Source: Thermoanaerobaculia bacterium
Lineage (GTDB): Bacteria > Acidobacteriota > Thermoanaerobaculia > UBA5066
Reading direction: 5' to 3'
Assembly: GCA_963719225.1 (NCBI GenBank)
Contig: CAVRAY010000001.1
Location: 1,600,001-1,664,000, forward strand
DNA: 64,000 nucleotides
Shown: one piece after another, positions 1 through 53,272 of the stretch
Layout: every line of letters begins with the position of its first letter
How positions within the stretch are numbered: position 1 is the first letter of the stretch
Notes under the pieces: model-generated
Told to the model about the DNA's origin: nothing
The model's database searches: none
What the model saw: only the letters and a program-made list of their open reading frames with translations
Made by a program: the position numbers and the translations under genes

Positions 1-209
1 TGTACCTGGCCGACGTCTTCACGGTTCCCGCGAGCCTCGCGGGCCTGCCCGCGGTCTCGGTTCCCTCGGGCTTCTCCAGGGACGGACTACCCATCGGGAT
101 GCAGCTCATCGGGCCGGGCGACTCCGAGCCGCTCCTTTTCGCGCTCGCGCGCGTCCTCGAGGACGCATCCGGCGCCCTCGCGCGGCGCCCACCGGGCGCG
201 GTGAGTTGA
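1..209 (+). CDS. gatA: Asp/Glu-tRNA amidotransferase subunit A, 3' end (partial)
   Basis: Frame from base 3 reads [37 protein letters not shown]..., the conserved GatA C-terminus; TGA at 207-209. Confidence 0.88.
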
Positions 210-2059
210 GCGGACGGCGCTTTCTCGCCGCCGCGGCCGGCGCCGCGCTTTTCCTGCCGGCCGCCCCGTCGCTTCCCTCTGCTCCGGCCCGCCGGATCGA
301 GGTGTCGCGGGACTTCGCCGTCCAGCGCGCGGACGGAGCGATCACCGTCGAGGCGCGGCCTCTCGAAGGGGAGACGCCGATCGAGTTCGTCCGCCGCGTC
401 TCGACGGACGACGCGACGGCGCAGCGGCTGCTCGCCCTGCCGGGAGTCGCGGCGGGCACGCGAAGCGCCGTGCTCTCCTACGCCGCGCTCTCCGACGAAT
501 CCAAGCGCGCCGCGATCGCGGCGCTCTTTCCGTCCGACGTGCGGGCGACGACGGGCTGGCTCCACATCGCGGTGGAGGAGGAACGTCTCGCCGGGATCGC
601 CGAATGGTTCACGGGCACGGCCGACAACGCGAAGGCGCTGGCGACGGAGAACGCCCTCGGTCTCGACGTCGTGCCTCCCGGCGCGACCGTCCGGATTCCC
701 GTGCACCTCCTCCTGCCGCCGTTCCGCGACGCCGAAAGCGTGCCCGACATGGAGCCGCCGAATCTCGTCTACGACCAGGACGAGAGGGGCCGCTACGCGG
801 TGTACCGCCTGCGAAAAGGAGAGGCGCTCTATTCGGCGGTGGTGGTGCGCTTCACGGGCCGACTCGATGCCGTCGATGTGAACGACCTCGCCATGACCAT
901 CGCGGCGCGCTCCGCGATCGAGAACGTCCACGCGATCCCGGTCGGTTACCCCGTGAAGATCCCGATGGAGTACCTGACCGAGGAGTTCCTCCCGAAGGGG
1001 GACCCGCGCTCCGTGGAGCGCGCGAAGGAGAAGGCCGAGTCCCAGCAGTTCGCGCGGCCCGAGATCGCCCGGGGCCTGGCGGGCGTGCGCGTGATCCTCG
1101 ACGCGGGTCACGGCGGCCGCGACACGGGGACTCTCCACGGGGACGTATGGGAATCGACGTACGTCTACGACGTCGCCTGCCGGCTGCGGAAGATCCTGGC
1201 CGAGAGAACGCGCGCCGAGGTCATCATGACGACGAAGGACTCGGCGCTGGGGTGGAAGGTGCCGGACCGCGACGGGCTTCGCGGTCGTCGGACCCAGTTC
1301 CTCCTCACCGACCCGGCCTACTCGCTCGCCGATCCCACGGTCGGCGTCAACCTCCGGTGGTACCTCGCGAACAGCCTGATCCGGCGGCCCGGGCCGGACG
1401 GCGAGAAGGTGCCTCCCGAACGGACGATCTTCGTCTCCCTTCACGCCGACTCGCTGCACCCGTCGGTGCGCGGCGCCATGGTCTACGTGCCCGGCGAGCG
1501 CTACCTGCGCGAACGCTACGGCAAGAAAGGTGCGGCGTACGCGGGGTATCGGGAGGTAAAGGAGCAGCCGGTCGTCTCGTTCAACCGCAAGGAGCGCGTC
1601 GCTTCCGAGGGCGCCTCCACGACGCTCGCGAACGCCATCATCGCCGCCATGCGCGAGGCGGGCCTGCCGATTCACAGTTTCTCGCCGGTGCGCACGCACG
1701 TGATCCGCTCGGGCCGCGAGTGGGTGCCGGCGGTCCTGCGCTACAACCGGGTCCCGAACCGGGTGCTCGTCGAGCTCGCGAATCTCGGAAACGAGGAGGA
1801 CCGCGCGCTCATGAAGACGCGCGCCTTCCGCGACTCGCTCGCCGACTCGCTCGCGTCCGCGGTCGTCGCCTTCTTCGGCGGCCCACCGCCCGGGCTCTAC
1901 GGGCCGGTGCCGCAGACCGCGTCCGCCCGGACGCCGAAACCGGTCAAGCCGGCGCCGAAAAGGCCGCGCAAGAGACGCTGGGGGCCACCGCCTCGAACCA
2001 GTTCCGGCGCGAGGCGTCGAGGAGTCCCGCGAGATCCACGAGCGCGACCGCACGGGTGA
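206..2059 (+). CDS. N-acetylmuramoyl-L-alanine amidase (Amidase_3) with long N-terminal region; true end probably near 1981
   Basis: ILDAGHGG, E in VWES, SLHAD and VLVELANL zinc motifs; GRRFL Tat-like N-terminus; TTG start overlaps the gatA stop. Confidence 0.85.
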
Positions 2060-3452
2060 CGTCGGCGAGGAGCCGGGCGCGGGAAGGCGTGTCCCGCGGC
2101 GAGAGGGCCGCACGGCAGCAGGCGTCGAAGGCCGGCGCGAACTCGCCATGCGAACCGCACAGGAACGTGCCCGCGAGGTCGGGCCTTCCGGCCCGCCGCG
2201 CCGATTCCGAGAAGTGGGCCGCGGCGAAGTAGAGCTTGGACAACTGGACGAAGAGCGGAAAATCGCCGAGAGCCGAATAGAGCGCCGCGACCAGCCGGGC
2301 GGAGCGGTCGGCCTCCTGGAGGGTGAGGGCGCCGAAGGCCGCGAGGCGGGCGTCGAAGCGCGGCGTCCCGAAATCCTGCTCGAGCGCCTCGGCGAGCCGC
2401 TGAATGCCGAGGAGCGCGAGCGGGAAGCCCGTCGAGAGGAGCGGGTCGGCGAACGCCGCGGCCGACGGGAGGAGAGCCCACCCCGGCCCGGCGGCGCGGG
2501 CGCGCCGGAACCCGAGGCGCGGCTCATGGACGAACGGGCGGACGGGACGCGCGTTCGCGAACTGGGCGCCGACGCTCGGGAAGCGGGCGAGCAGACGCTC
2601 CCATGCGGGAGCGCCCTCCTCCAGACGAAGGTCGCGCGCGAGAGGCTTCTCGGCGGCGACGCCCGCGCTCGTGACGCCGTTCGAGAAGCGGAGGACCCAG
2701 ATCCAGCCGCCGGGGAAGACGTGGTGAACCGCCGCGTCGTCGACGGGGTAGGGCGGGGAGTCCGGCGACGCGAAGTCGGGCATCTCGTCGAGGCGGCGAA
2801 CGCCCGTGAAATGGGAGAAGAGGGATTCCGTCGAAGGAAGGCCGGCGGGAGCCGCCTCACCAGCGCCCAGCGCGGCGGCGAGCGCACCGTCGCGGCCCGA
2901 CGCATCCACGAGGAACGCGGCGCGGACGGAGAGCGGGCCATCTTCCCTTTCGAAGGAGATCTCCCATCCCCTTTCCCCGCGAACGACGTCCCGCAGGGCG
3001 GCGCGATCCAGATAACGGGCGCCGGCCGCCTCCGCCTCCTTCAGAAGAAGGAAATCGAATTCTTCCCGGTACCAATGCGTGTCGGCGACCTCGTCGTCCG
3101 GGCTCGCCGCGACGAGGAGCTGGTCCTGCCGATCCGGGGCGTTCGCGAACGGGCGACCCTCCGCGTGATGGAAGAAGCTGAAGCCGCGTTTCAGGCCGCA
3201 GCTCACCTCGGGGTACGCGCGCCTCCACGAGCCCCACTTCGCGAACGGCCGGATCCGGGGGAGGTCGTAGCGCCCGGCGATCTCCTCGAGCAGGAGATTC
3301 GCAAGCGGCGACGTGGACTCGCCGATCGCGAAACGCGGATGGGACCCTCTTTCGAGGAGCACGACGGAGAGTCCGAGCCGCCGCGACACGAGAGCGAGAA
3401 GCGTGCCCGCGAAGCCGGACCCCACGATCGCGACGTCGAACGCGCCTTGCAT
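1944..3452 (-). CDS. Flavin-dependent halogenase family protein
   Basis: GSGFAG FAD motif, RFAIGES, Lys in CGLKRGF, WIWVLRF (WxWxIP-like), DPLLSTG. Confidence 0.8.
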   Translation of the reverse strand: MQGAFDVAIVGSGFAGTLLALVSRRLGLSVVLLERGSHPRFAIGESTSPLANLLLEEIAGRYDLPRIRPFAKWGSWRRAYPEVSCGLKRGFSFFHHAEGRPFANAPDRQDQLLVAASPDDEVADTHWYREEFDFLLLKEAEAAGARYLDRAALRDVVRGERGWEISFEREDGPLSVRAAFLVDASGRDGALAAALGAGEAAPAGLPSTESLFSHFTGVRRLDEMPDFASPDSPPYPVDDAAVHHVFPGGWIWVLRFSNGVTSAGVAAEKPLARDLRLEEGAPAWERLLARFPSVGAQFANARPVRPFVHEPRLGFRRARAAGPGWALLPSAAAFADPLLSTGFPLALLGIQRLAEALEQDFGTPRFDARLAAFGALTLQEADRSARLVAALYSALGDFPLFVQLSKLYFAAAHFSESARRAGRPDLAGTFLCGSHGEFAPAFDACCRAALSPRDTPSRARLLADVTRAVALVDLAGLLDASRRNWFEAVAPSVSCAAFSAPA

Positions 3453-3455
3453 GCG

Positions 3456-4517
3456 TTACGCCCCAGTGCGCGAGCGACCCAGGCACGAGGGACATTGAGG
3501 AGGAAGAGGAAGATTTCGTTGAATGAGGTTCATTTCGCGGAGCCTGTGCACGCGAGCCGCGGCGCAGCAGGCCGGGGCGCTGAGAGCGTCCGCATTCCAG
3601 AGATCCGCAAGAACGAGACCCGCCGCGCGGTGTCGTCCTTCTTCACCTTCTAGGAAATCCCCCGGCGCTTTCCCCTCTTCCCCTTCTAAGAAATCTTCTC
3701 TTCGTTCTTCTTCCAGGGAATCTCCCAGCGCCATCTCCAGATCCTCGAGCGTCGGGGGAATGAACAGACCCTGCCTCTGCAGCTCTTCCATCGCGCCGTT
3801 GCCGAGGCGCGTCGGGATGAGAGAGACGACCTCCGCGCCCGCCCGAAAGGACGTCGCGACGCTCCTGCGCGTTGCGTCCGCCCACTCCTCTCTCCGCAGA
3901 AACGGGAGCCCGACGAGGACGAAGCTGCGGACGCCGATCGCGTGAGACGAGAGGAATCGACAGGCGTTCTCGAAATCTTCGACCGTCATCCCCTTGTCCA
4001 GTCTTCTCAGGATCTCCTCGTTGGCGGTCTCGAGCCCGAGAGCGATCTGGAGGCGCGGGCCCCCGAGGAGATCGCGAAACCGCAGGCTCGATTCGCCGAC
4101 GAGCGCGGGGTGGCATTCCACGACCACGCTCTCGAAACCGCGCGCGAGCGAGGCGATTTCCTCGTGGTCCCCCCGCGGAATCGACGCGCGGTCGAAGAAG
4201 CTGCCCGCGTTGTAGAGCTTCAGGACGTTCGCGGCGGGCAGCCTCTCGAGCGCGTAGCGGAGCTGCGCCGGAATCGCGCCCCTCGGCGTCGGCGCCTCGA
4301 GCGTGTTCTTCCAGAGATCGCACATGAGGCAGTGCCAGGGGCACTCCCGGTTCGTCAGGAAGACCGTGGCGACCCGGTCCGTTCCGCCGTCCACGCGGGG
4401 CTCCTCCTCGACGAAGACGCCGTACGGGCGGAACGGATCCACCGCGTTGCGGTCGGGCCGCAGGCCGAGGATCGCCTCCTCGCGCGCCTCGCGGTCGATG
4501 GAAGAGAAATCGATCAC
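3456..4517 (-). CDS. Radical SAM protein, RaSEA/TIGR01210-like
   Basis: CPWHCLMC; KLYNAGSFFD; IALGLETAN; GTG start at 4517 overlaps the upstream TGA (GTGA). Confidence 0.8.
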   Translation of the reverse strand: MIDFSSIDREAREEAILGLRPDRNAVDPFRPYGVFVEEEPRVDGGTDRVATVFLTNRECPWHCLMCDLWKNTLEAPTPRGAIPAQLRYALERLPAANVLKLYNAGSFFDRASIPRGDHEEIASLARGFESVVVECHPALVGESSLRFRDLLGGPRLQIALGLETANEEILRRLDKGMTVEDFENACRFLSSHAIGVRSFVLVGLPFLRREEWADATRRSVATSFRAGAEVVSLIPTRLGNGAMEELQRQGLFIPPTLEDLEMALGDSLEEERREDFLEGEEGKAPGDFLEGEEGRHRAAGLVLADLWNADALSAPACCAAARVHRLREMNLIQRNLPLPPQCPSCLGRSRTGA

Positions 4518-5856
4518 GCGGCGCCGAGGTATCGCGACAGGAACGCGGCGCGATACTGCGCCTCGGAGAAGGGAAAGCGCCGCGCGTAGACGTCCTGTCC
4601 GCCGGCGCCGTGCTGGAACCTCCGTTTCGGGTAGACGGGCATCCTCCGGCCGGTGATCGCTTCGACCCCGCGCGAGACGATCCCGCCCTTCAGCGCGTAG
4701 AGCTTCTGGACGTCTCCCTCGGTGAGCGCGTCGAACGGGATTCCCTCGGCCACGGCAATGACGCGGGACGCGTGAACGGGCTGAAGCCGGAGAAGCCGCA
4801 GGCGCGAAGGGGTGCGTACGTGCGCGCGTACGAGCGGCTCTGGCCTCCGGAGTACGTGTCCGAGTGCTTGAGCGAGCCGACGCCCCAGCCTTCCTGGTAG
4901 AGCATGGGGTTCGTGACGACGCTCCGGATCGTGAGCTCGGGTTTTCGTCGATGGGGTAGTCCTTCAGGTTCTCGTCGCCGCCGTCGCCGTCCAGGAGGAA
5001 CCGCCACCGGGGATGGCGGGCGCGGATCCCGCGGAGGAGCGCGAGCGCCATCGTCGCGGACTCCACGTCGCGCGGCTTGTAATCCTCGATGATCCGCACG
5101 GCCTCCACCGGGTCGCAGCGAAGCCGGGTCGACCTCGACGTTCTCGAGGAAGAAACCGAGGTCGAGAGCCTCGAGGAAGGCCCTCGCCTGCGCGAGATCC
5201 GGGCCTTCGAAGGTCGGCCCGCTGCCGAGGGAGAGCGTGAAGGCCTTGAGGCGCGACGGGCTCATGCCCAGGCGGCGGAGGACATGGTGCGTCACGAGGA
5301 AAACGGCACCGCTGTCGATGCCGCCCGAGAAGCAGACGCCGACGGGCTCGTTCGGGGGAACCGTACGGAGCCACTTCGCGATCTCGTTCGCGAGCGCGCC
5401 CACGTAGAGGCGGCCGATCTCGCCGAGGTCGGAAGGAAGGACGTTCCGCGCGGGCGTGAACGTCCGCACGTAGCTCGGGGCGGGGTCCGGGCAGCCGACG
5501 AGCCGCAGCGTGACGACGTGGTGCGCAGGCACCATGCGCGTATAGCTCGGGTGGAACTGGTCGGCGTGAGAGTGCTCGGCGAGCCAGCTCTCGATCGCGT
5601 CGATCCGGTCCGCGACGACGAGAACGGGGCCGTCCTTTTCCTTCGCGAGGAAATACCTCAGGGGGCGGTCGAGAGAGCGCGCGAGCCGCACGGTGATCCC
5701 GTCCACCCCGACGAGCGCGTACGAGCCGTCGAGGGCGGCGACGGCTTCCGCGTCCCCGGACGCCACGCGCGCGCGGGCGACCTCGAGGGAGCGGCCGTGG
5801 AGAACGTTGAGGGCCGGATCGGTGAGATCGACGACGCGGGCGACGGAACGGTACAT
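4514..5856 (-). CDS. Asparagine-synthetase-like ATP pyrophosphatase (three apparent frameshifts near 5115, 4940 and 4765)
   Basis: PP-loop CFSGGIDSG and DGDGGDENL; reading frame reconstructed across ORFs 4690..6012, 3456..5108 and 4514..4753; ATG at 5856; no N-terminal Cys. Confidence 0.75.
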
Positions 5857-5997
5857 CGGCCTCGAGCCTCCGGGGGCGATGCTAACGCGGCCGACGGCCT
5901 TCCTCCGCGCGGGCCTGCTATATTCCGACGGCTTCTGCGCCCGCCGGCGGCCTCGCGGCATCCGGTCGAGGCCCGACGCGGAGGTCACCGAAAAGAG

Positions 5998-10702: not shown

Positions 10703-12199
10703 TCAGCTCCTCTTCGGGGTCTCCGGCGACGATCGGGTCGGCTCGTTGGACGGCTCGGCGTCGCGCCGGACGCCCATCGCCCGCGCGCGTTCGTCCGCGG
10801 TCCGCTCGAGCTGCGCGAGGCGCGAAAGGCGCTCGGCCTCCTTGTCCCGCTCGATTTGCTCGGTCTTCTTCTTCGCCGAGCCCAGGAGCGAGCTCGCGGC
10901 CAGAACGAGCTTCAGATGAAACTGGCCCGTGAACTTCGTGTTCTCGCCGAAGGCGCCCACGAACGAGGCGCCGCTCAAGCGGGCCTCCGAGAAATCCGCG
11001 CCGCCGATGTTCGCCTGCTTGAAGGAGGCGCCCTCGAGCTTCGCGCCGACGAGCTGGGCGAAGCGCACGTCACTGCCCGAGAAATCGGCGTCGTCGGCTT
11101 CGATCCCGAAGAGGTTGGCGCCGGACAGGTTCCCTCCCACCGCGATCGCGCTCGAGAGCCGCGAGCGCTTGAGGTTTGCGCGCCTCAGGTTCGTCCGCGC
11201 GAGCTTGACCTTGGCCATGATGCAGCCTTCGAGATTCGCCTCTGAGAGATCGGCCCCCGAGAGATCGGCTTCCGTGAAGTTCGAGCCGCGCAGGTTCGCG
11301 CGAGAGCCGTTGGCCTCCAGAAGACGTGCGGCCGTGAAGTTGGCCATCCGCATGCGGGGCGTCCTCAGGTCGATCTTGTCGAGCATGGCCCCCGTGAAGT
11401 CGGTCTCCTCGAGCTGCGCCCCGGTGAAGGTGCTGCCCCTCAGGTCCGCCCGATGGGCGCTCGTCTTGCGCATGACGGCTTCGGAGAAGTTCGCGGCCTG
11501 GGCCACGACGCGCTCGAAATCGGCCTCGGAGAGATCGGCTCCCGTGAAATCGGCGCCGTTCGCCTCGGCGCCGCGGAAGACGGCGCGCTGAAGCTTCGCG
11601 CCCTTGAAAGACGTTCCCGTGAGCTTGGCGTCGCGGAAGAACGCGAGGGTCAGGTTCGCCTTGTCGAATCGGCCCTTCCGGTAGGTGACTCCGTCGAAGA
11701 CCGCCTGCGTGAGATCGGTGCCCTCGAAAACGCATCGCTCGAGCTGGGCGCCCCGGAAGTTCGCGTAGAGGAGGCGCCCGAAGGAGAAATCGGTGGCCGT
11801 GAAATCGGTTCCGTCGAGCTTCGCACCCGTCATGTCGACGGCGGTCATGCTGCATTCGCGCACGGTGGCGCTCCTCAGGGTCGAGTTGCGGAAGATCGCG
11901 CCGACGAAGGAGACCCTGTCGAGGACGAGATAGTCGAGGTTCGTGTCGGAGAGATCGACCCGGTCGAGCTTCGAGCCGTTGAACGAAGCCCCCGTGAAGT
12001 GGGCCCGAGCCAGCGACGCGCCCGAGAGGTTGCAGCCCTCGACCTTCGCGCGCGAAAAGTCGGCTCCGGAAAGGTTCTTTCCCGAGAAATCGAGCGCGTG
12101 AAGGCGTGCGTCCGTGAAGTCCGGCGTCAGGGACGGCCGTTCGGCTCGCCAGTCGTTCCAGTCGGGTGCCTGAACGTGTTCGAGGTGTTCTGGGTTCAC
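10703..12199 (-). CDS. Pentapeptide repeat protein
   Basis: About 400 aa of A(D/N)(L/F)xx repeats followed by a charged C-terminal tail. Confidence 0.93.
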   Translation of the reverse strand: MNPEHLEHVQAPDWNDWRAERPSLTPDFTDARLHALDFSGKNLSGADFSRAKVEGCNLSGASLARAHFTGASFNGSKLDRVDLSDTNLDYLVLDRVSFVGAIFRNSTLRSATVRECSMTAVDMTGAKLDGTDFTATDFSFGRLLYANFRGAQLERCVFEGTDLTQAVFDGVTYRKGRFDKANLTLAFFRDAKLTGTSFKGAKLQRAVFRGAEANGADFTGADLSEADFERVVAQAANFSEAVMRKTSAHRADLRGSTFTGAQLEETDFTGAMLDKIDLRTPRMRMANFTAARLLEANGSRANLRGSNFTEADLSGADLSEANLEGCIMAKVKLARTNLRRANLKRSRLSSAIAVGGNLSGANLFGIEADDADFSGSDVRFAQLVGAKLEGASFKQANIGGADFSEARLSGASFVGAFGENTKFTGQFHLKLVLAASSLLGSAKKKTEQIERDKEAERLSRLAQLERTADERARAMGVRRDAEPSNEPTRSSPETPKRS

Positions 12200-14836: not shown

Positions 14837-15067
14837 ATGGCCAATAAGGACGACCGCTACGCCGAGAACGCTCCCGGGAAATTCTACGTCGATACGCAGT
14901 GCATCGACTGCGACGTCTGCCGCGTCACGGCGCCGGCGAATTTCACCCGCCAGGAAGACAAGGGCTTCTCGTACGTGATGAAGCAGGCCGAGACGCCCGA
15001 GGAAGAGGCCCAGTGCCAGGAAGCCATGGACTCCTGCCCGGTCGAAGCCATCGGGAACGACGGCTAG
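14837..15067 (+). CDS. Single-cluster ferredoxin
   Basis: CIDCDVC...CPVEAIG; ATG at 14837. Confidence 0.9.
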
Positions 15068-15990
15068 AGCGCCCTTCTCGCGTGGTAGCTCGACCTGACG
15101 AGCGGTCCTGATTCGACGAGAGAAAACCCCATCTCCTCCCCCTCTGTTCGAATCTCCTCGAACTCCGCCGGCGTGTAGTACCGCTCGATCGGGAGGCGGC
15201 GCGCGTGGGGCTGGAGGTACTGGCCCACCGTGACGACGTCCGCGCCGCAGGACCGGATGTCGCGTAGCGTCGCCCGAAGCTCCTCGCGCGTCTCGCCGAG
15301 CCCCACCATGACCCCGCTCTTCACTTTCAAAGAAATCTTCTCCTCGTCTCTCCTCTTGGCGGCCCTCCGGAGGAGCTCCAGCGATCGGGCGTAGATCGCG
15401 TCCGGCCGCACGCGCCGGTAGAGGCGCTCGACGGTCTCCGTGTTGTGGTTGAGCACCTCCGGCCACGCGTCGAGGACGGTCCCGAGGGCGGCCTCGCTGC
15501 CGAGAAAGTCCGGGATGAGAACCTCGATCGTGACGCCGGTCGCGAGGGAGCGAATCTCCCGGATCGTCGCCGCGAAGTGAGCGGCGCCGCCGCCCGGGAG
15601 CTCGTCGCGGTTCACGGACGTTATGACGGCGTGTGCGACGCCGAGCGTCTTCACCGCCTCGGCCACGTGGCGCGGCTCTTCGGGGTCGAGAGGCTTCCCG
15701 GCACCCTGCGCCACCGCGCAGAAGCCGCAATGCCGCGTGCACACGTCGCCCATGAGCATGAACGTCGCCGTCTTCTCGACGCCCCAGCATTCGAAGATGT
15801 TCGGGCAGCGCGCCTCCTGGCACACGGTGTTGAGGTGCTTGTCCTCCAAGAGTTTCGCGATGCCGCGCGAGGTCTCGTTGTCGTGGACCCGCACCTTGAG
15901 CCACTCGGGCCGGGGGGTGATGCCGTAAAGAGGCCGCGCGGCGCTCACGCTTTTCAGTCTAGCGCGTGTGACTGCGTTGCGATCGGCCAT
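15064..15990 (-). CDS. lipA: Lipoyl synthase
   Basis: [40 protein letters not shown]. Confidence 0.96.
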
Positions 15991-17967: not shown

Positions 17968-19640
17968 CTACTCGATCGCCTCCAGCTCGCTCCACGCGCC
18001 CTTCTCGAGCGTCGCCTTGACGACGTTCACGAACGCATCTCCCTCGGCCCCGTCGATGAGCCGGTGGTCGAACGTGAGCGCGATGTAGCCCATCGTCTTG
18101 ATGGCGAGCGAATCGGAGCCGTCCGGCATCTCGACGACCTTCGCCCTCTTCTCGATCGCGCCGACGCCCATGATGGCGACCTGCGGCTGGTTGATGACGG
18201 GCGTCGCGAAGAGCGACCCGAACGAGCCGTGATTCGTCACGGTGAACGTGCCCCCCGCCACCTCGTCCGGCACGAGCTTCTTCGCGCGCGCCCGCGTGGC
18301 GAGGTCGTTCGCCGCGCGCGCCAGGCCCACGAGGGAGAGGTCGTCCGCGCGGCGGATGACGGGCACGATGAGACCCCAGTCGAGCGCGACGGCGATACCC
18401 AGGTTCACCTCGCGGTGATAGACCACGTCGTCGCCGACGATGGAGGCGTTCACGAGCGGGCGTGCCTTGAGAGCCGCGACCGCCGCGCGCAGAAGGAAGG
18501 GCAGGTACGACAGCTTCGTGCCGTACTGCTGCTCGAAGCGGGCCTTCACGCGGTTCCTCAGCTTCGCGATGCCCGAGTAGTCGACTTCGAACACGGTCGT
18601 CACGTGAGCCGACGTCTGCTTCGACTCGACCATCCGCTGCGCGATCTTCCGTCGCATCGCGCTCATGGGCTCGACGGTGACGCTGCTTCCGGACGGGAAC
18701 GCGAGCGCCGTGGGCGACGGCGCGGGCGCGCGGGGGGGACCGGAGCTTCCGCGGGTCGCGCGGCGAGGACCGCGGGAGCCGGCTCGGGAGCTGCGGGAGA
18801 GGGAGCCGGAGGTTCGGAGATTTTCTGAGAAGGCGCGGGAGCGGGCGCTGCAGCCTGTGTTGCCGGTGCCGCGGCGGCAGCCGGCTGTACACCCTTCGAA
18901 GAATCTTCTCTCCCGGTCCCCGGCGCGGCCGAAGGCCGCGCTCCTCCCGCCAGGTATCCCTCGATGTCCTGCTTCGTCACCCGGCCCGAGATGCCCGTGC
19001 CCGGGATCTGCGAGATGTCGACGCCCTTCTCCTCCGCGATCGCGCGGACGACGGGCGACGAGCGCCGCCGAAGGAGCTCTTCCTGTGATTCGCCGGGTTG
19101 AGCGGGAACGGAAGAAGGAATTGAAGATTGCTTGGAAGGCGCGGGAACGGCTGCCGCAGATGGTGTCGCCGGAGCCGCGGCGGGGGCCGGCTGCCCACCC
19201 TTCGAAGAAACCGGCGCCGCCGGAGGCGGCGCTCCTGTCCCCGGTCTCTCTTTAGCCTTCGAAGAATCTTCCGCCGGCGGAGCCGGCGGTGGCGCCGCGG
19301 CGGCCTGAGCCGCCATTCCCGCCGCGGTCGAGCTTTTCACCTCGTCCGACGAAGCCTGTTCTTCCGCAGCCGGCGGCGCAGGCGCCGCAGCGGCTTTCTC
19401 TCCCGCCTCTCCGAGGCGCGCGACGACGGTGTTGATGGGCACTGTCTGCCCTTCTGGGACGAGGATTTCGAGGAGGGTACCGCTGCCCGGAGAGGGGATT
19501 TCGGCGTCCACCTTGTCGGTGGAAATCTCGAAGAGAGGTTCGTCGCGCTTCACCGCGTCGCCGGGCTTCTTGAGCCATTTCGTGAGCGTGCCTTCGGCGA
19601 TCGACTCGCCCATCTGCGGCATGATGACGTTCGTCGGCAT
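17968..19640 (-). CDS. 2-oxoacid dehydrogenase E2 dihydrolipoamide acyltransferase (apparent frameshift at the homopolymer 18732-18738)
   Basis: Lipoyl domain STDKVDAE, E3-binding GTGISGRVTKQD, catalytic FDHRLIDG in the second frame. Confidence 0.9.
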
Positions 19641-19658
19641 GGTCTTTATCTCCGGTGG

Positions 19659-20696
19659 CTAATACCGCACGAGCTTGCGCACGGCGGCCAGCAGCGTCTT
19701 CACGTTCGGGAGGAACGCCTCCTCCAGGGGTGGAGAGTACGGCACCGGAGTGTCGGGCGCCGTCACGCGCAGGATCGGGCCGTCCAGCCATTCGAACGCT
19801 TTCTCGGAAAGCGTGGCGGCGATCTCGGCTCCGAGCCCGCCCGTGCGCGTGTCCTCGTGGAGAACGAGGCACTTTCCGGTGCGCTTGACGGACTCGAGGA
19901 TCGCTTCCTCGTCCAGGGGCAGGAGCGTCCTGAGGTCGAGCACCTCGGCCGAGACGCCGTCTTTCTCGAGAATCGCGGCGGCTTCGAGGGCCATCCAGAG
20001 CATCGCGCCGTAGGTGACGATCGTGAGGTCCCGTCCGGCCCGGCGCACGGCGGCCTTTCCGATCGGGACGACGTAGTCCTCCTCGGGCACGCGGTCTTTC
20101 ACCCTTCTGTAGAGGAACTTGTGCTCCAGGAAGATGACCGGATCGTCGTCGCGGATCGCGGCCTTCAGGAGCCCTTTCGCGTCGTAAGCGGTCGCGGGCG
20201 CCACGACCTTGAGGCCCGGCGTCTTGACGAAGTACATCTCGGGGCTCTGCGAGTGATACGGCCCTCCGTGGACTCCGGCGCCCGACGGACCGCGCACGAC
20301 CATCGGGACGCCGACGCCGGTCCGGTACCGGTTCTTGGCCGCGAAGTTCGTGAGGAGGTCGAAGGCGCGCGAGATGAAGTCGATGAACTGCATCTCCGCT
20401 ACGGGACGCATGCCTCGCATCGCCGCCCCGATCGCGCCGCCGACGATGCCCTCCTCGGCGAGCGGCGTGTCGAGGACGCGTGCCTTGCCGAATCTCTCCT
20501 GCAGCCCCTCCGTCGCCTTGAAAGCGCCGCCGTAGACGCCTACGTCCTGGCCGAGGACGAAGACCCGTTCGTCGCGCTCCATCTCCTCGAAGAGCGCCTG
20601 TCGGATGGCCTCGAGGTAGAAGATCTCGACGCCGGCGGTCGCGTCGGCCGTCAGGGTCAGCGCCGCACCGCTTCGGGCGACTCGCGGGTCTGCCAT
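19659..20696 (-). CDS. 2-oxoacid dehydrogenase E1 beta (branched-chain type likely)
   Basis: GQDVGVYGGAF, DTPLAE, HGGPYHSQS, DLRTLLPLD. Confidence 0.92.
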   Translation of the reverse strand: MADPRVARSGAALTLTADATAGVEIFYLEAIRQALFEEMERDERVFVLGQDVGVYGGAFKATEGLQERFGKARVLDTPLAEEGIVGGAIGAAMRGMRPVAEMQFIDFISRAFDLLTNFAAKNRYRTGVGVPMVVRGPSGAGVHGGPYHSQSPEMYFVKTPGLKVVAPATAYDAKGLLKAAIRDDDPVIFLEHKFLYRRVKDRVPEEDYVVPIGKAAVRRAGRDLTIVTYGAMLWMALEAAAILEKDGVSAEVLDLRTLLPLDEEAILESVKRTGKCLVLHEDTRTGGLGAEIAATLSEKAFEWLDGPILRVTAPDTPVPYSPPLEEAFLPNVKTLLAAVRKLVRY

Positions 20697-32892: not shown

Positions 32893-35184
32893 TCATCCCT
32901 CGAGGCCCAGCCTCTTCAGGAGCTCGAGGAATCGCGGCTCGCTCCGAAGAGGGTCGAAACGGGGATGGACCTTCAGCCAGACGAGCGTGGAGTCGTGCTC
33001 GTCGTACGCGCGCTCGAGCCATTCCAGCGCGAATCCGGTTTCCCCGAGGCGCGCGTAGATCGACGCGAGTCCCCAGGGAGAGACGTATTGCCGGTCGCGC
33101 CGCGCCTTGAGCTCCTCGAGAACGTCGAGAGCCTCCTGCCGCCGACCCGCGACCGCGCAGGCGTTCGCGAGCCCGATCGACGGATCCGCGACGGTGTTCC
33201 CGGCGAGCGCGACGGCCCTCTCGTAGTGCCGGATCGCCTCGTCGATCCTCCCGCACGACTCGAGGGCACGCGCGAGGTCGCTGTGGCCGGCCAGGAAGTC
33301 GGGATCGAGCTCCAGCGCCTTGCGGTACGCCTCGATCGCCTCGTCGTAGCGGCGCGCGTAGAAGAGGACGTCCCCGACGGCCGTGTGGATGATCACGGAG
33401 AGAGGATCGAGCTCCAGGGCGCGGCGCGCCTCGGTGATCGCCTCTTCGTGGCGGCCCAGCCCCGAGAGGAGCTGCCCGTACCAGCGGTGGCCCGTCGCGT
33501 AGCCGGGACTCAGCCGCACGGCGTCCCGGAATTCCCGCTCCGCCGAGGACCACTCCCAATCGTAAAAGCGGCGCACGAATCCGAGAGAGGCATGGGCTTC
33601 CGCGAGGTTGGGGTCGAGCTCGAGGGCGCGCAGAGCGGCGCTCTTGGCCTGCGGGAAGGCCTCGGAGGGCGGCAGCGCCTTGATGTTGCCGAGCACGCCG
33701 AAGGCATCGGCAATCCCTCCCCACGCAAGGGCATACGATGGATCCAGCTCGATCGCGCTCTCGTAGTTTTGGATCGCGGCGCGCATGCCTTCGGGTGTCC
33801 ACTTGTTCCAGAAGAAACGTCCTTTCAGATAGAGCTGATACGCCTCGGCGTTCCGCGTGTGCTGCTTGGCGACCTTCCGCCTTTCCGGAGCGCTCAGCTT
33901 GAAGCGCAGGTGCTCGCAGATCTCGTGTGAGATTCCCTCTTCGATCGCGAGGAGGTCCTGCATCGGCCGCTCGTAGCGTGCTCCCCAGAGTCGGAATCCG
34001 GAGGAGACGTCCACGAGCTCCGCCTGCACGCGCAGGAGGTCGCCGACCTTCGAAAGGCGGCCGGTCACGACGGCGCGTACGTCGAGCTCGCGGCCCGCGG
34101 CCAGAGGATCGATCTCGCGTCCGGAAAAGCGAAAAACGGTGCTCCGCGCCATGACGCGAAGCTTCGGGAGATGGGAGAGCGTGTCGATCAGGCGTTCCGT
34201 GATGCCGTCTCCGAGGTAGTCGTGTTCGCTCTCGCCGCCGGCGTTCACGAGGGGCAGCACCGCGACCGAATCGATGGCCTTTCTCTTCCGGCTTCGCGAA
34301 GGCCCCGAGGCAGAAGCTTCGAGGAGTTCGCGGAGTCGCGTCGCGAGGACGACAGCCGAGGAGGCGCGGCGGGCGGGGTCCTTCTCGAGACACTGCCGCA
34401 CGATGTCTTCGACGGCGGCGGGGACGTTTGCGCCGGACGTCTTCGGCGGCTGTTCGTGAAGAATCGCCGTCATGATCTCGGCCGCGGTCTCCTTCTGGAA
34501 CGCCCGGCGACCGGTCAACATTTCGTAGAGGATTGCGCCGAAGGAAAAAACATCCGAGCGCGCGTCGGCAGGCAAGCCGCGCACCTGTTCGGGGGACATG
34601 TAGCCGACAGTGCCGAGGACGGTCCCCGGCTCCGTCGGGCGCGTCAGCGTCGGCGCATCCGCCTCAGGAGAGGAAACGCCCGCCGTCAGGTCCTTCGCGA
34701 GGCCGAAATCCAGGACCTTCGCCCGGCCGTCGCTCGTGATCATGACGTTCTCGGGCTTCAGGTCGCGGTGGACGACGTTCTTCTGGTGTGCCGTCGCGAG
34801 GCCCTCCGCGATCTGCCGGGCGAGGTCGAGAGCCGTGCGCGTCGGAAGGGGTCCCGAAAACAGGCGGTGCCGGAGCGTTTCGCCTTCGACGAGCTCCATG
34901 ATCAGGAGATGACGCGTCGACGATGAGGAAGAGAGGGGACCGGGGATTTCTTCGAATGAGTAGATGGCAGCGATTCCGGGATGATTGAGCGCTGCGAGTA
35001 GCCGGGCCTCCCTCTCGAACCGCTCTTTCCTCTCTTCACCTTCTAGGAAATCCTCCGGCAGTACCTTTACCGCGACCTCCCTCGCGAGCCGCAGGTCTCT
35101 CGCCCGATAGACTTCGCCCATCCCGCCGGCCCCGAGGGGCTCGAGGATCTCGAAAGACCCGAACCGGGTACCCGAGGGAATCAA
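32893..35184 (-). CDS. Ser/Thr protein kinase with TolB-N-like and TPR domains
   Basis: [26 protein letters not shown], TPRs; likely TTG start at 35184. Confidence 0.92.
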
Positions 35185-35257
35185 GATCCTGAAGCGTATG
35201 ACGACGTCGCGGGCCCGCGACTCGCCCTCTTCACCTTCTAGGAAATACAATCCCCGG

Positions 35258-45789: not shown

Positions 45790-48390
45790 ATGACGCTCGC
45801 GCCAGGCACACGCCTCGGTCCTTATGAGGTTCTCGCCTCGCTCGGCGCGGGAGGAATGGGCGAGGTCTACCGGGCGAAAGACCCGAAACTCGCGAGAGAG
45901 GTCGCGGTAAAGGTTCTGCCTGGGGATTTCTTAGAAGGGGAAGAGAGACGGGAGCGATTCGAGCGGGAGGCGCGCGCGCTCGCGAGACTCAATCACCCTG
46001 GCATCGCCTCCGTATATTCATTCGAGGAAATCCCCGGTTCTTCCTCTTCCTCAACTTCTTCCTCTTCGTCTTCCTTGTCCCGCCACATCCTCGTCATGGA
46101 GCTGCTCGAGGGCGAGACGCTGCGCGCGCGCCTCGCGGGCGGGCCGCTGTCGGTCCGCAAGGCGGTGGACTTCGCGGTCCAGGTCGCACGGGGCCTCGCT
46201 GCGGCGCACGAGAAGGGCGTCGTCCACCGCGACCTCAAGCCGGAAAACCTCTTCGTGACGAGGGACGGCCGGGTCAAGATCCTCGACTTCGGTCTCGCGA
46301 AGTCCGTCGAAGCCGGCGCCGGGAGCGGCGGGACGAACCTCCCGACGATGTCGAAGGGCACGGAGCCGGGCGCGGTTCTCGGGACGCTCGGCTACATGTC
46401 GCCGGAGCAGCTCCGGGGCCTCCCCGCGGACCACCGGACCGACCTCTTCAGCTTCGGTGCGGTGCTCTACGAGATGCTTTCCGGGCGGAAAGCGTTCCGG
46501 GGCGACACGGCGGCCGACACCGTCTCGGCGATCCTGCGCGAAGAGCCGCCCGATCTCTCCGCGACGAACCGGACGATCCCGCCTGCGCTCGAGCGGATCG
46601 TGCGCCACTGCCTCGAGAAGAGTCCGGATGAAAGAGCCCATTCCGCGCACGACCTCGCGTTCGACCTCGAGTCCCTCTCGACGGCGTCTTCCGGGTCCAT
46701 CGCGCCGTCTCGAGCGGTCGCCTTCCGAAAACCCTCCCGGCAAGCTCTCATCCTCGCTTCCGTATGCGCCGCGGCCGGCTTGCTCGGCGGGCACGTCGTC
46801 TGGAGGACGCCCGTGCCGGCGCCGCCGACGTTCCACCGGCTCACGTTTCGGCGCGGGAACGTCCTCGGGGCGCGTTTCGCGCCCGACGGCCGGACGGTCG
46901 TGTACGGCGCGGCGTGGGGAGGCGCACCCTCGGAGATCTTCACGGTGCGCACGGAGGGTCCTGAGTCGCGGCCGCTGGGGTTCTCGTCCGCGACCGTGTT
47001 GTCCGTGTCTTCCGGCGGCGAGCTCGCGATCCTCACACGAGAGGGCATGACGGACCCGGGCGCCTGGGGAACGCTTGCGCGAGTGCCGCTTTCGGGCGGG
47101 GCTCCGCGGCCGCTTCTCGAGGAGGTCAACGACGCCGACTGGACGCCCGACGGCAAGGAACTGGCGGTCGTACGCGTCCGCACGGAAGGCGGTCGACGCA
47201 TCGAGCTTCCACCCGGGAAGACTCTCTACGAGACGTCGCGCAGGCTCGGGTCCCTGCGTGTCTCGCCGGACGGCTCGAAGGTCGCCTTCGTCGAGTACGG
47301 AGACGGGGACGCTTCGCTGCGCGTGGTCGACCGCGCGGGGAAAGCGCGCACGATCGCGGGACCGATGGCATCTTTCTCCGGCCGCTTTGCCTGGAACCCG
47401 TCGGGCCGCGAAGTCTGGTATTTCGGCGGGAGTGGCCGGAAGGACGCGGCGCTCCGCGCCGTGGATCTCTCGGGTCGGGTACGGACGCTCTATCGCTCGA
47501 CGGGCTTTCTCTTCGTGCACGATGTTTTCCCGGACGGGCGCGTGCTCCTCGAGCACGCCGCAAGCGTGCGCGGGCTCATGTTCGCGCGCACCGGCGACCG
47601 GCAGGAGACGGAGCTATCCTGGTTCGACAGCTCGCGGATCGTGGCGGTGGCTGCGAGGGGGCGCGCGGTCCTGTTCAACGAGGGCGGCGAGGCGCTGGGC
47701 GGCCGGCTGCAGGCCTTCTTCCGGAAGACGGACGGCTCGTCCGCCGTACGTCTCGCCGACGGCGAAGGGCTTGCTCTCTCCCCGGACGCGACGCGCGTCA
47801 TCATGCGCACCGGAGACGGCCTGACGATTGCCCCGGTGGGCGCCGGTGCGCCGGTTCCCGTTGGGCTCGGCCCGATCGCAGGCGTGACGTCCGCTTCGTT
47901 CTTCTCCGACGGAAGGCGGCTCCTTCTCCATGGAGCCGAGAAGGGAAAGCGTCCGCGGTTCTGGATCGTCGAACCCGGAGGCATCCCTCGTCCGATCTCG
48001 CCCGAAGGCACGCTCGGGGACGCCGGGCTCATGTCGCCTGACGAACGGAGGGTGATCGGCTGGGCGGCCGACACGTCGATCCTCTCGATCGTCTCGACCG
48101 AGGGAGCTGCGGCACGCACCCTCGCCGGAACGCAGTACGACGAACCCCTCGGCTGGACGGCCGACGGCCGGTCGATCTACATCCGCCCGAGCCCCGGACA
48201 GCTGGGGATGATCGGCACGCTCGACGTGGACACGCTTGCACGCAAGCCCTGGAAATCGTTCGCACCGCCGGATCCCTCGAGCGTCTCGTCCTTCCCGGGA
48301 GTCGCGTTCGCTCCGGATGGATCCGCGTATGCCTACACGTACCAGCGCGTGCTGACGTCCGACCTCTACGTGGTCGAAGGGCTGAAGTGA
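45790..48390 (+). CDS. Ser/Thr protein kinase with TM helix and TolB-like beta-propeller
   Basis: [23 protein letters not shown], repeated (F/W)(A/S/T)PDG blades. Confidence 0.93.
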   Translation: MTLAPGTRLGPYEVLASLGAGGMGEVYRAKDPKLAREVAVKVLPGDFLEGEERRERFEREARALARLNHPGIASVYSFEEIPGSSSSSTSSSSSSLSRHILVMELLEGETLRARLAGGPLSVRKAVDFAVQVARGLAAAHEKGVVHRDLKPENLFVTRDGRVKILDFGLAKSVEAGAGSGGTNLPTMSKGTEPGAVLGTLGYMSPEQLRGLPADHRTDLFSFGAVLYEMLSGRKAFRGDTAADTVSAILREEPPDLSATNRTIPPALERIVRHCLEKSPDERAHSAHDLAFDLESLSTASSGSIAPSRAVAFRKPSRQALILASVCAAAGLLGGHVVWRTPVPAPPTFHRLTFRRGNVLGARFAPDGRTVVYGAAWGGAPSEIFTVRTEGPESRPLGFSSATVLSVSSGGELAILTREGMTDPGAWGTLARVPLSGGAPRPLLEEVNDADWTPDGKELAVVRVRTEGGRRIELPPGKTLYETSRRLGSLRVSPDGSKVAFVEYGDGDASLRVVDRAGKARTIAGPMASFSGRFAWNPSGREVWYFGGSGRKDAALRAVDLSGRVRTLYRSTGFLFVHDVFPDGRVLLEHAASVRGLMFARTGDRQETELSWFDSSRIVAVAARGRAVLFNEGGEALGGRLQAFFRKTDGSSAVRLADGEGLALSPDATRVIMRTGDGLTIAPVGAGAPVPVGLGPIAGVTSASFFSDGRRLLLHGAEKGKRPRFWIVEPGGIPRPISPEGTLGDAGLMSPDERRVIGWAADTSILSIVSTEGAAARTLAGTQYDEPLGWTADGRSIYIRPSPGQLGMIGTLDVDTLARKPWKSFAPPDPSSVSSFPGVAFAPDGSAYAYTYQRVLTSDLYVVEGLK

Positions 48391-51290: not shown

Positions 51291-53272
51291 GTGCCGGATT
51301 TCGAGTTCCTCTCCCCGCTGACCCCGCAGGGCGACCAGCCTCACGCCATCGAGCAGCTCGTCGCGGCCTATCGCGAAAGCCGCCAGAAGCAGGTTCTCCT
51401 CGGCGTCACGGGCTCCGGAAAGACGTTCACGATGGCGAAGGTCGTCGAGGCGCTGAACCGCCCCACGCTCGTCCTCTCCCACAACAAGACGCTCGCCGCC
51501 CAGCTCTACCAGGAATTCCGGAGCTTCTTTCCGAAGAACCGTGTGGAGTACTTCGTCTCCTACTACGACTATTACCAGCCCGAGGCGTACGTGCCGCAGT
51601 CGGACACGTACATCGAGAAGGAAACGCAGGTCAACGACGAGATCGACAAAATGCGCATCGCCGCGACGGCCGCGCTCTTCGAGAGGCGCGACGTGCTGAT
51701 CGTCGCCTCCGTGTCGTGCATTTACGGCCTCGGCAGCCCGGAGTCGTTCGGGAAGATGGCGATCGAGCTCCAGAAGGGCGCGCGCTACGGAATGACGTGG
51801 TATCTCAAGCAGCTCGTCGAGGCGCAGTACGAGCGGACGAGCCTCGACCTCGAGCGCGGCGGCTTCCGGGTTCGCGGCGACGTCCTCGAGATCCAGCCGT
51901 CGTACGAGGACCTCGGCCTGAGAGTCGAGTTCTTCGGCGACGAGATCGACCGCATCACGCGCTTCGAGATCGTGACCGGCAGGACGGTCGGGGAGATCGC
52001 GCGCTTCGAGCTCTTTCCGAAATCCCACTACGTGACCCCCGAAGAGATCCGGAAAGGGCGCTGGGATCGATCGAGGCTGAGCTCGTCGTGCGGCTCGAGG
52101 AACTTCACGCGCAGAACAAGCTGCTCGAGGCGCAGCGCCTCGAGCAGCGGACCCGATTCGACCTCGAGATGATGCGGGAGATCGGCTACTGCGCGGGCAT
52201 CGAGAATTACTCGCGCCACCTCTCGGGACGCCGGCCGGGGGAGCCGCCGCCCACGCTCCTGGACTATTTCCCGGCGGATTACCTCACGATCATCGACGAG
52301 AGCCACCAGACGGTGCCGCAGCTCCGCGCCATGTATCACGGCGACCAGTCCCGCAAGAAGACGCTCGTGGAGTACGGCTTCCGGCTTCCGTCCGCCCTCG
52401 ACAACCGCCCGCTGAAGTTCGAGGAGTGGCTCGAGCGCGCGGGCCAGCGGCTCTTCGTCTCCGCCACCCCTGCCGCGTACGAGCTCGCGGAGACGGGAGG
52501 AGAGGTCGTCGAGCAGCTCCTGAGGCCGACGGGCCTCCTCGACCCGCCCATCGAGGTGAAGCCCGTGAAAGGCCAGGTGGACGATCTCCTGTCGCGCGTG
52601 AAGGAGCGCACGGCGAAAGGCGAGCGAACGCTCGTCACGACGCTCACGAAGCGGATGGCCGAGGACCTGACGAACTACTACCTCGAGCTCGGCGTGCGCG
52701 TGCGGTACCTCCACAGCGACATCGAGACGCTCGAGCGCGTCCAGATCATCGGCGACTTCCGCCGCGGCGTCTTCGACGTTCTCGTGGGCGTGAACCTGCT
52801 GCGCGAGGGGCTCGACCTGCCCGAGGTTTCCCTCGTGGCCGTTCTCGACGCCGACAAGGAAGGCTTCCTGAGATCCGAGACGTCGCTCATCCAGACGGCC
52901 GGGCGCGCGGCGCGGAACGTGAACGGGATCGCCGTCTTCTACGCGGACCGCATCACGGATTCCATGCGGCGGGCAATGGACGAGACCGAGCGCCGCCGGA
53001 TACTCCAGCGCGCGTACAACGAGGAGCACGGCATCGTGCCGGAGACGATCGTCAAGTCGCTCGACTCGCCTCTCCTCCAGATGGCCGAGCTCGACTACCT
53101 CGAACCGAGCCGCCTCGACCGGCGGGTGAAGGCGAAGGACGCGCCGTCTCTCGACCGCGAGATCGCGGACCTCGAGAAGGAGATGAAGACGGCGGCGAAG
53201 GAGCTCGAGTTCGAGAAGGCCGCGCAGCTCCGCGACCGCATCCGGGAGCTCCGCGCGATGAAGCTTTTCTGA
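51291..53272 (+). CDS. uvrB: Excinuclease ABC subunit B (apparent frameshift near 52055)
   Basis: [18 protein letters not shown], then [20 protein letters not shown] and UVR domain in the second frame. Confidence 0.95.

Follow-up and report, generated by a model that had tools for sequence, protein, structure and literature searches.

A candidate biosynthetic cassette of an asparagine-synthetase-fold ligase and a RaSEA-like radical SAM enzyme, with an optional halogenase-type flavoprotein, in Acidobacteriota and other phyla

Asparagine-synthetase-fold (AsnB-fold) PP-loop enzymes adenylate a carboxylate, and halogenases like PltM and CtcP need an electron-rich ring and, in the case of these two enzymes, act on free small molecules. 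A periplasmic dehydrogenase owes its quinone cofactor to the flavoprotein QhpG and its radical S-adenosylmethionine (SAM) partner QhpD. In tRNA, the radical SAM enzyme RaSEA converts the lysine adduct preQ0-Lys to archaeosine, and ArcS is active only in complex with RaSEA, according to the accessible portion of the source (PMC11298593). Here we describe a three-gene cassette with similarities to these systems, located in a 64,000-nucleotide stretch (the window) of contig CAVRAY010000001.1 (positions 1,600,001 to 1,664,000, assembly GCA_963719225.1) of a Thermoanaerobaculia bacterium from the phylum Acidobacteriota. Its three genes follow one another in the same orientation on the minus strand:

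4514..5856, minus strand, gene for an asparagine-synthetase-fold PP-loop ATP pyrophosphatase (the ligase); ATG at 5856, TGA at 4516-4514, four frame pieces in this assembly
3456..4517, minus strand, radical SAM gene; GTG at 4517 to TAA at 3458-3456, 353 amino acids
1944..3452, minus strand, gene for a flavin-dependent halogenase-type flavoprotein; ATG at 3452, 502 amino acids

The ligase and radical SAM genes overlap by four bases, having GTGA at 4514-4517 in common because the GTG start at 4517 precedes the TGA at 4516-4514, and a gap of three bases (3453-3455) separates the radical SAM gene from the flavoprotein gene. This tight coupling, already seen in the preliminary description of the locus, was reproduced by the open reading frames (ORFs) and their translations. 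We propose that the trio would build an undescribed, possibly halogenated, amide-bearing small molecule by a route of ligation, radical cleavage and optional halogenation, and we give this reading a probability of roughly 40%. Each of the three enzymes comes from a well-studied superfamily; it is their combination for which neither a description nor a pathway was found in the full-text literature searched. TIGR01210, the curated family of RaSEA, is not mentioned in that literature either, and NCBIfam contains no curated model for the cassette ligase or radical SAM enzyme. Three described systems were set aside as different, as far as the available parts of the sources describe them: the nitrilobacillin asparagine-synthetase-like nitrile synthetase (PMC13060819), the sponge Halo_AMP clusters and the ammosamide pathway. 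New in this work are the presence and absence of the halogenase within a genus, the co-occurrence counts, and an apparent pseudogene that is most likely an assembly artefact.

Orthologs of the ligase were identified in 12 genomes of an even sample of 151 Acidobacteriota (here and in the tallies below, the unpublished genome G025 is counted as one genome, and no conclusion depends on it by itself). The radical SAM gene was found in the same 12 genomes, plus one weak match. Halogenase orthologs (E-value ≤1e-40) are present in 11 of the 151 genomes, 10 of them directly beside the ligase and radical SAM pair, and only a distant halogenase homolog was detected outside the pair-bearing genomes. The co-occurrence of the halogenase and the pair gives a Fisher value of 5.7e-13, in a sample where kin are not independent. 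Among 41 relatives from the same order, the radical SAM gene occurs in 40 at E≤0.001 (39 at E≤1e-27), and the halogenase ortholog in 32, always directly beside the radical SAM gene.

Beyond Acidobacteriota, a scan limited to one genome per species yielded 49 loci spanning Acidobacteriota, Verrucomicrobiota, Planctomycetota, Bacteroidota and Armatimonadota. The ligase adjoins the radical SAM gene in 35 of these loci, and 24 contain the halogenase. Five genomes possess a lone radical SAM gene, and all five encode the ligase elsewhere (61-67% identity); when the pair lacks an adjacent halogenase, as in another five genomes, a halogenase ortholog is found elsewhere in only one. Thus, the obligate unit consists of the ligase and the radical SAM enzyme, to which the halogenase adds a third member that is dedicated to the pair but dispensable. 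The preliminary description expected the whole trio to be conserved together, and it is indeed kept as a unit in several phyla; the expectation fails for the halogenase, which is optional (missing in 8 of 24 other genomes of the same genus and in 2 of the 12 pair-bearing Acidobacteriota). No cassette was found in 100 further Verrucomicrobiota genomes, and the distribution is therefore patchy. Since the pair is unusually conserved yet patchy, its distribution points to a specific, transferable chemical capability.

Several variants of the locus were observed. In G017, a genome of the same genus, the Amidase_3 gene directly follows the radical SAM gene, and the ligase and radical SAM enzyme are read as one 787-residue ORF (L025:4660-7020). 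This fusion may be real or another long-read indel, because there is one extra base at the junction as compared with relatives. Six longer proteins were considered as fused forms, and none was taken as a reliable Rosetta-stone fusion: two have N-terminal extensions rich in R, G and P, suggestive of ORFs called too long, one changes frame mid-gene, one carries DUF6807, and one is an ORF with all three enzymes in which the radical SAM C-terminus is garbled. In G061, a Phd/YefM antitoxin and PIN-domain toxin pair lies between the ligase and radical SAM genes (L089:3787-4472). In two Verrucomicrobiota genomes (L082:6056-7879, L085:6858-8672), a lone ligase gene stands divergently beside a YgiQ-type (Radical_SAM_N) gene, which is of another family than the cassette partner.

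The ligase carries the two signature motifs of its fold:

5328-5311, minus strand, SGGIDS, PP-loop motif, read from the translation
4988-4971, minus strand, GDGGDE, acidic motif, read from the translation

In 29 orthologs, the PP-loop residues S177, G179, D181 and S182 are invariant and DGDGGDE is invariant or nearly so. The protein starts with MYRSV, and none of the 29 orthologs has at position 2 the Cys that serves as the glutaminase nucleophile of AsnB. Intact orthologs are about 447 residues long (447 in the ortholog of the relative G003). The Pfam family PF00733 matches the ligase pieces of the window and, in the intact G003 ortholog, scores 45.9 bits against a cut-off of 21, covering the PP-loop region only. 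The TIGR01536 scores (40.7 bits for the intact ortholog, 22.3 bits for a window piece) stay below the cut-off of 267.1; by these scores and the missing Cys, the cassette ligase does not belong to AsnB. An AlphaFold (AF2) model of the G003 ortholog, which is 89% identical, was built from the alignment of 29 orthologs (predicted local distance difference test score, pLDDT, 82.9; predicted template-modelling score 0.86). Foldseek against the PDB aligned this model over its whole length with human asparagine synthetase (ASNS), beta-lactam synthetase (BLS), carbapenam synthetase (CarA) and TsnB9 as top matches, with E-values from 1e-12 to 6e-9 (ASNS 1.0e-12, BLS 5.3e-12, CarA 2.5e-10, about 460 aligned columns) and template-modelling (TM) scores of about 0.5-0.64. 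The model thus predicts a two-domain AsnB/beta-lactam-synthetase fold without the glutaminase Cys. An invariant segment of 44 residues (295-338) was modelled with low confidence.

The ligase forms a tight family of its own, remote from ordinary AsnB. A profile search retrieved 283 cluster representatives, many of them fragments, at E≤1e-30 among 1.84 billion, and a search of the ESM Atlas returned only clusters named 'asparagine synthase family'. Ligase identity between most of the sampled phyla is 56-68%, and 48% in Armatimonadota. In a tree built by a quick method from 26 rows chosen from loci with complete genes, the ligases mostly track phyla, except that a Bacteroidota and Planctomycetota pair is nested among Acidobacteriota.

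The motifs of the radical SAM enzyme map as follows:

4343-4320, minus strand, CPWHCLMC, radical SAM cluster motif, residues 59-66
4214-4191, minus strand, YNAGSFFD, read from the translation
4043-4026, minus strand, ALGLET, read from the translation

The three cysteines of the CxxxCxxC motif (C59, C63 and C66) are invariant in 35 orthologs. The CPWHCLMCDLW core of these orthologs has invariant Cys, Pro, Met, Asp and Leu residues and an invariant second Trp; conservation is almost complete at the first Trp and the first Leu, and His varies. The enzyme also has a Cys-bearing C-terminal tail. The general family PF04055 matches with 28.6 bits. Among the curated NCBIfam families, RaSEA/TIGR01210 is by far the best match (93.2 bits), followed by MnmL/YtqA with 23.4 bits. 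The RaSEA cut-off of 212.15 bits is not reached, neither by this protein nor by the Verrucomicrobiota orthologs (99.2 and 113.5 bits); in a control search with the same model it was exceeded in 3 of 14 control genomes. The AF2 model of the radical SAM enzyme (pLDDT 91.6) matched only generic radical SAM barrels of the PDB in Foldseek (Elp3, PFL-AE, MgmA, TsrM; TM ≤0.5). With a score below the cut-off and a different partner, the enzyme is not a RaSEA equivalog, and is best seen as a bacterial sister of archaeal RaSEA.

The flavoprotein passes the gathering score of PF04820 (36.9 bits versus a cut-off of 21). Its best solved relatives by phmmer are PltM (1.8e-48) and the tetracycline 7-halogenase CtcP (1.4e-45), aligned over about 410 residues. 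The GxGxxG motif for binding flavin adenine dinucleotide (GSGFAG at residue 11), K88, W250/W252 and FxDPxxSxG are invariant in 21 orthologs. K88, found in CGLKRGFSF (GLKRGF), aligns with the lysine of CGIKLGFSF in PltM, which we take to be the catalytic one. The tryptophan motif reads GGWIWVLRF, with WIWVL[R/Q/K/N] in all 21 orthologs versus WLWVIP in PltM. By its motifs, this is a predicted flavin-dependent halogenase family member, PltM/CtcP-like with one deviant motif. In this genus the protein does not have the C-terminal stretch of about 25 residues seen in other orthologs.

All motifs named in the preliminary description are present at the places given there. The enzyme assignments also agree with it: it had read, from SGGIDS and GDGGDE without an N-terminal Cys, a probable amide-forming ATP pyrophosphatase rather than a glutamine-dependent AsnB, a resemblance of the radical SAM protein to RaSEA/TIGR01210, and a putative catalytic Lys in the halogenase. 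The ortholog alignments, the Foldseek matches of the ligase, the hidden Markov model search and the alignment with PltM each back the respective point.

The proposed route combines these activities. The ligase would adenylate a carboxylate and then join it to an amine donor or an internal amine, another nucleophile being expected because the enzyme has no glutaminase. The radical SAM enzyme would cut or rearrange the ligase adduct, as RaSEA does with preQ0-Lys, and the net effect may be a glutamine-independent nitrogen transfer or amide formation. The halogenase would chlorinate or brominate an electron-rich ring of the substrate or product; since it is repeatedly absent beside the pair, halogenation is best seen as an optional tailoring step. 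If the logic of ligation followed by radical cleavage is true, the trick known from archaeosine would be a general way to install nitrogen without glutamine. In that case, Acidobacteriota, Verrucomicrobiota and Planctomycetota, whose chemistry is little known, would also provide natural-product chemists with a new halogenated scaffold.

The product may serve secreted CRTAC1-like FG-GAP propellers. Genes of the CRTAC1-like FG-GAP/UnbV_ASPIC type are present in nine Terriglobia loci of the cassette, in four copies around the pair in a Bacteroidota locus, and beside the lone ligase gene in a Verrucomicrobiota genome. In G061, an FG-GAP propeller gene directly follows the radical SAM gene, at the usual site of the halogenase, and in G147 a propeller gene lies 167 bases after the halogenase. 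Propellers (E≤1e-60) are found in all 12 pair-bearing Acidobacteriota genomes versus 48 of the 139 others; the Fisher value of this association (7.5e-6, 151 genomes) is overstated, because the genomes are related. The statistical tie offers a handle on a very large secreted family of unknown function. CRTAC1 neighbours are also mentioned for hydrazine-synthase homologs in a 2025 paper (PMC12758564). That anammox system was set aside as a candidate for the same system, since the accessible part of the paper mentions no radical SAM, asparagine or halogenase (PMC12758564). The genome studied here has its own cluster at 1906031-1923510 of contig 1, about 306-323 kb from the cassette, with at least four FG-GAP/UnbV_ASPIC genes together with DUF2911, DUF11 and ChaN-like haem-binding genes, and no cassette-like genes were seen beside it.

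Several observations weigh against the proposed route. No substrate, product or carrier was found for the cassette, and no riboswitch at it. Of the 24 other genomes drawn from the genus, only 16 retain the halogenase, and 2 of the 12 pair-bearing Acidobacteriota lack it, so it is dispensable. Apart from the CRTAC1-like propellers, no neighbours conserved across phyla were detected by Pfam in the flanks of 9 diverse and 5 lone-ligase loci, and the propellers themselves are common anyway (60 of 151 genomes) and lie about 258-323 kb from the cassette in this genome. No conserved small ORF was found within 900 bases upstream in 29 loci beyond within-genus synteny, a search that short peptides could escape. 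The ligase has no sequence-level match to solved structures at E≤0.1, and the strong conservation of its N-domain, where a GCPDP cysteine is invariant in the 29 orthologs, hints at a function beyond the proposed model. The TIGR01210 score of the radical SAM enzyme falls far short of the RaSEA cut-off, and the enzyme is coupled to an AsnB-fold partner, not to ArcS (no genome-wide ArcS search was made), so its chemistry may differ from that of RaSEA. Finally, the WxWxIP motif of the flavoprotein ends in L-[R/Q/K/N] in 21 of 21 orthologs, and there are sub-threshold NCBIfam matches to peptidyl-tryptophan hydroxylases, namely QhpG (82.4 bits, cut-off 240), LodB and GoxB (50.9 and 50.4 bits, cut-offs 400 each). 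For these two reasons the flavoprotein might instead hydroxylate its substrate or act on a protein.

The latter possibility is developed in the likeliest rival, which we still consider unlikely. Here, the target of the cassette would be a protein or a ribosomal peptide, either a secreted CRTAC1-like propeller or a peptide whose gene lies elsewhere. The ligase would act on a side chain or the C-terminus by amidation or cross-linking, the peptide would be modified further by the radical SAM enzyme, and Trp or Tyr would be hydroxylated or halogenated by the flavoprotein, much as QhpG and its radical SAM partner make a quinone cofactor. The QhpG, LodB and GoxB matches are in line with such a role, as are the CRTAC1-like genes that adjoin the cassette in several lineages and are encoded by 12 of 12 pair-bearing genomes; the best solved relatives of the flavoprotein, PltM and CtcP, speak against it by their substrates, which are free small molecules. 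The AsnB fold is used by peptide-modifying enzymes, an example being a C-terminal nitrile synthetase in the accessible part of PMC13060819. However, the region of 900 bases upstream lacks a conserved small ORF in the 29 loci, no gene of the RRE/PqqD type and none for a protease or exporter accompanies the cassette from phylum to phylum, and 48 of the 139 genomes that lack the pair also encode propellers, which in the present genome are distant from the cassette.

A bolder reading, which we regard as unlikely, takes the pair as a bacterial glutamine-independent nitrogen-transfer machine. In it, the ligase would couple an amino-acid amine such as that of lysine to an adenylated carboxylate, and the radical SAM enzyme would cut the C-N bond of the donor so that the nitrogen is left behind. 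ArcS-RaSEA chemistry would thereby reach beyond archaeal tRNA to a diffusible aromatic molecule, which, tuned by the halogenase, would be a new cofactor or ligand of the secreted CRTAC1-like calcium propellers.

Whether the cassette is functional in this very genome is a separate question, limited to this copy. The ligase gene is split here into four pieces in three frames (5856-5119, 5117-4941, 4938-4765 and 4759-4514), and SGGIDS and GDGGDE fall into different frames of this assembly because indels split the gene. DNA alignment and the gap list of blastn revealed exactly three single-base length differences from four relatives:

5116..5119, minus strand, frame break 1, one base extra versus relatives
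4937..4944, minus strand, frame break 2, one base missing, in the context of an A-run and a C-run; placed by alignment near 4938-4942
4762..4766, minus strand, frame break 3, one base missing; placed by alignment near 4764-4766

One explanation, also raised in the preliminary description, is that the cassette is a decaying remnant whose ligase gene has become a pseudogene through three genuine frameshifts. We find this quite improbable. All four pieces are in a single frame in 6 relatives from three families of the order, and each piece, read in its own frame, has 89-95% protein identity to the G003 ortholog. The ratios of nonsynonymous to synonymous substitution rates versus G003 (0.17, 0.07, 0.06 and 0.16) are as low as or lower than those of the intact downstream radical SAM and halogenase genes (0.23 and 0.21); every ligase piece is under purifying selection. 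The pieces themselves contain neither stops nor larger lesions.

Four public runs (X1-X4) supplied Logan contigs, 94-98% identical to the stretch, that were aligned to it; they come from close relatives and are not proven source reads, the best run sharing 0.27 of the sampled words of the stretch. The extra base of break 1, at 5119, is absent at full depth in the contigs of all four runs. At break 2, an inserted base at 4937-4944 is present in one X1 contig, three X2 contigs and two X4 contigs; the remaining depth is without it and some contigs break off with loose ends at 4938-4940. At break 3, an inserted base at 4762-4765 is supported by 16.8 of 16.8 depth in X1, 11.1+15.9 of 27 in X2 and 2.9 of 2.9 in X3.

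Other genes are likewise broken in this 4.75-Mb metagenome assembly of 2 contigs (completeness 97.19%, contamination 6.21%), which fits consensus indel errors. We compared 53 kb of the window with its syntenic counterpart in G003 and identified two such cases. The uvrB gene (51291-53269, plus strand) is read in two frames because an A-run at about 52052-52055 lacks one base; the G003 ortholog is a single ORF of 660 residues, an X1 contig has an extra A that restores the frame, and the break is most likely an assembly error. The 2-oxoacid dehydrogenase E2 acyltransferase gene (17971-19872, minus strand), encoding lipoyl, E3-binding and catalytic domains, is in three frame pieces versus a 583-residue G003 ortholog, with breaks at about 19646 and at 18738-18921.

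Since the gene is intact in relatives and contigs and under purifying selection, and since uvrB and the E2 gene are broken too, the three ligase breaks are very probably assembly (consensus indel) errors; therefore, the organism itself probably has an intact cassette. Against this counts the density of the breaks, three one-base indels within 350 bases of one gene, which exceeds that in the rest of the 53 kb aligned to G003. It is also conceivable that the ligase gene was inactivated by all three changes very recently, because the contigs that contradict the indels represent relatives of 94-98% identity and not source reads. As a practical consequence, the assembly has single-base indel errors, and broken genes in the window should not be read as pseudogenes.

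The weakest alternative is that the pair forms a bacterial archaeosine-like system acting on 7-deazaguanine or another base, be it part of tRNA, of DNA or of a free nucleoside, and that the ligase takes the role of ArcS; PP-loop enzymes such as QueC do work in deazapurine synthesis, and among curated families the radical SAM enzyme comes closest to RaSEA. A phenolic-type halogenase as a regular third member is not known from nucleoside modification. RaSEA needs an amine-loading partner, according to the available part of PMC11298593, which would suit this idea. It is nevertheless highly improbable, given that all TIGR01210 scores (93-114 bits) are below 212, that no RNA-binding domain was detected in the ligase and no PADLOC defence match for the cassette, and that the distribution (12 of 151 Acidobacteriota, 0 of 100 further Verrucomicrobiota) is patchy, unlike that of core tRNA modification; the nucleoside or tRNA option of the preliminary description thus gains no support beyond the RaSEA resemblance.

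The surroundings of the cassette in the window, which has a G+C content of about 70%, add the following feature:

5857..5997, no strand assigned, divergent intergenic region between the cassette and an ABC-transporter ATPase gene, 141 bases as counted from the start positions

This region is presumed to be a promoter region. No sigma-70-like site was found in it and a promoter and terminator scan yielded nothing useful; likewise, it has no Rfam match, riboswitch or other RNA. The 5' flank is a divergent ABC-transporter operon that includes the ATPase (probable start at about 5998), ABC_transp_aux and DUF4340. The 3' flank is a convergent Amidase_3 gene (206-2059, plus strand), and the 3' ends of the halogenase and Amidase_3 genes overlap as ORFs by 116 bases (1944-2059). 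No gene for a nonribosomal peptide synthetase, polyketide synthase or recognisable precursor was found in the flanks by Pfam, as previously noted for the adjacent genes. Less than 12 kb from the cassette and syntenic in G003 are genes for a pentapeptide-repeat protein (498 residues, 10703-12199, minus strand) and for a second, unrelated radical SAM protein (308 residues, 15064-15990, minus strand). Two Ser/Thr kinase genes, at 32893-35250 (minus strand, Pkinase and TPR, 785 residues) and 45790-48390 (plus strand, Pkinase and PD40, 866 residues), have no counterpart in the syntenic G003 region, and therefore both stretches appear to be lineage-specific insertions or losses as compared with G003.

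By comparing the cassette with known systems, we find the closest parallel in ArcS-RaSEA of Euryarchaeota. Both have a radical SAM enzyme of the RaSEA neighbourhood (93-114 bits in the cassette) strictly paired with a partner enzyme, and the archaeal enzymes begin with the formation of a lysine adduct, on which radical chemistry then acts, as the accessible part of the source describes it (PMC11298593). The cassette differs by a partner that is a predicted AsnB-fold ATP pyrophosphatase instead of the TGT/PUA-type ArcS, by bacterial and patchily distributed hosts, by a halogenase as a regular third member, and by the lack of any tRNA link found. The ligase in turn shares with BLS, CarA, TsnB9 and AsnB a two-domain fold, as modelled over the full length, and both SGGxDS and GDGGDE; like BLS and CarA, it is without the N-terminal catalytic Cys. 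It is set apart from this group by the missing sequence match to solved structures, a score far below the TIGR01536 cut-off and its conserved N-domain.

The halogenase resembles the phloroglucinol halogenase PltM and CtcP, its best solved relatives, in the conserved GxGxxG, the lysine in CG[IL]K[LR]GFSF, WxW and FxDPxxSxG, whereas its WxWxIP motif ends in L-[R/Q/K/N], its C-terminus is shorter in this genus, and it is encoded beside a ligase and a radical SAM enzyme instead of a polyketide pathway. QhpG, LodB and GoxB belong to the same flavoprotein superfamily (sub-threshold match, QhpG 82.4 bits); the cassette flavoprotein is far below their cut-offs and keeps the halogenase lysine, and, in contrast to QhpG/QhpD, no SPASM-type radical SAM enzyme, small-subunit gene, dedicated protease or exporter is found near the cassette. 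Lastly, under the unlikely nitrogen-transfer reading, the cassette product would resemble pyrroloquinoline quinone, which is made in the cytoplasm and serves periplasmic propeller dehydrogenases, as the product would serve the CRTAC1-like propellers.

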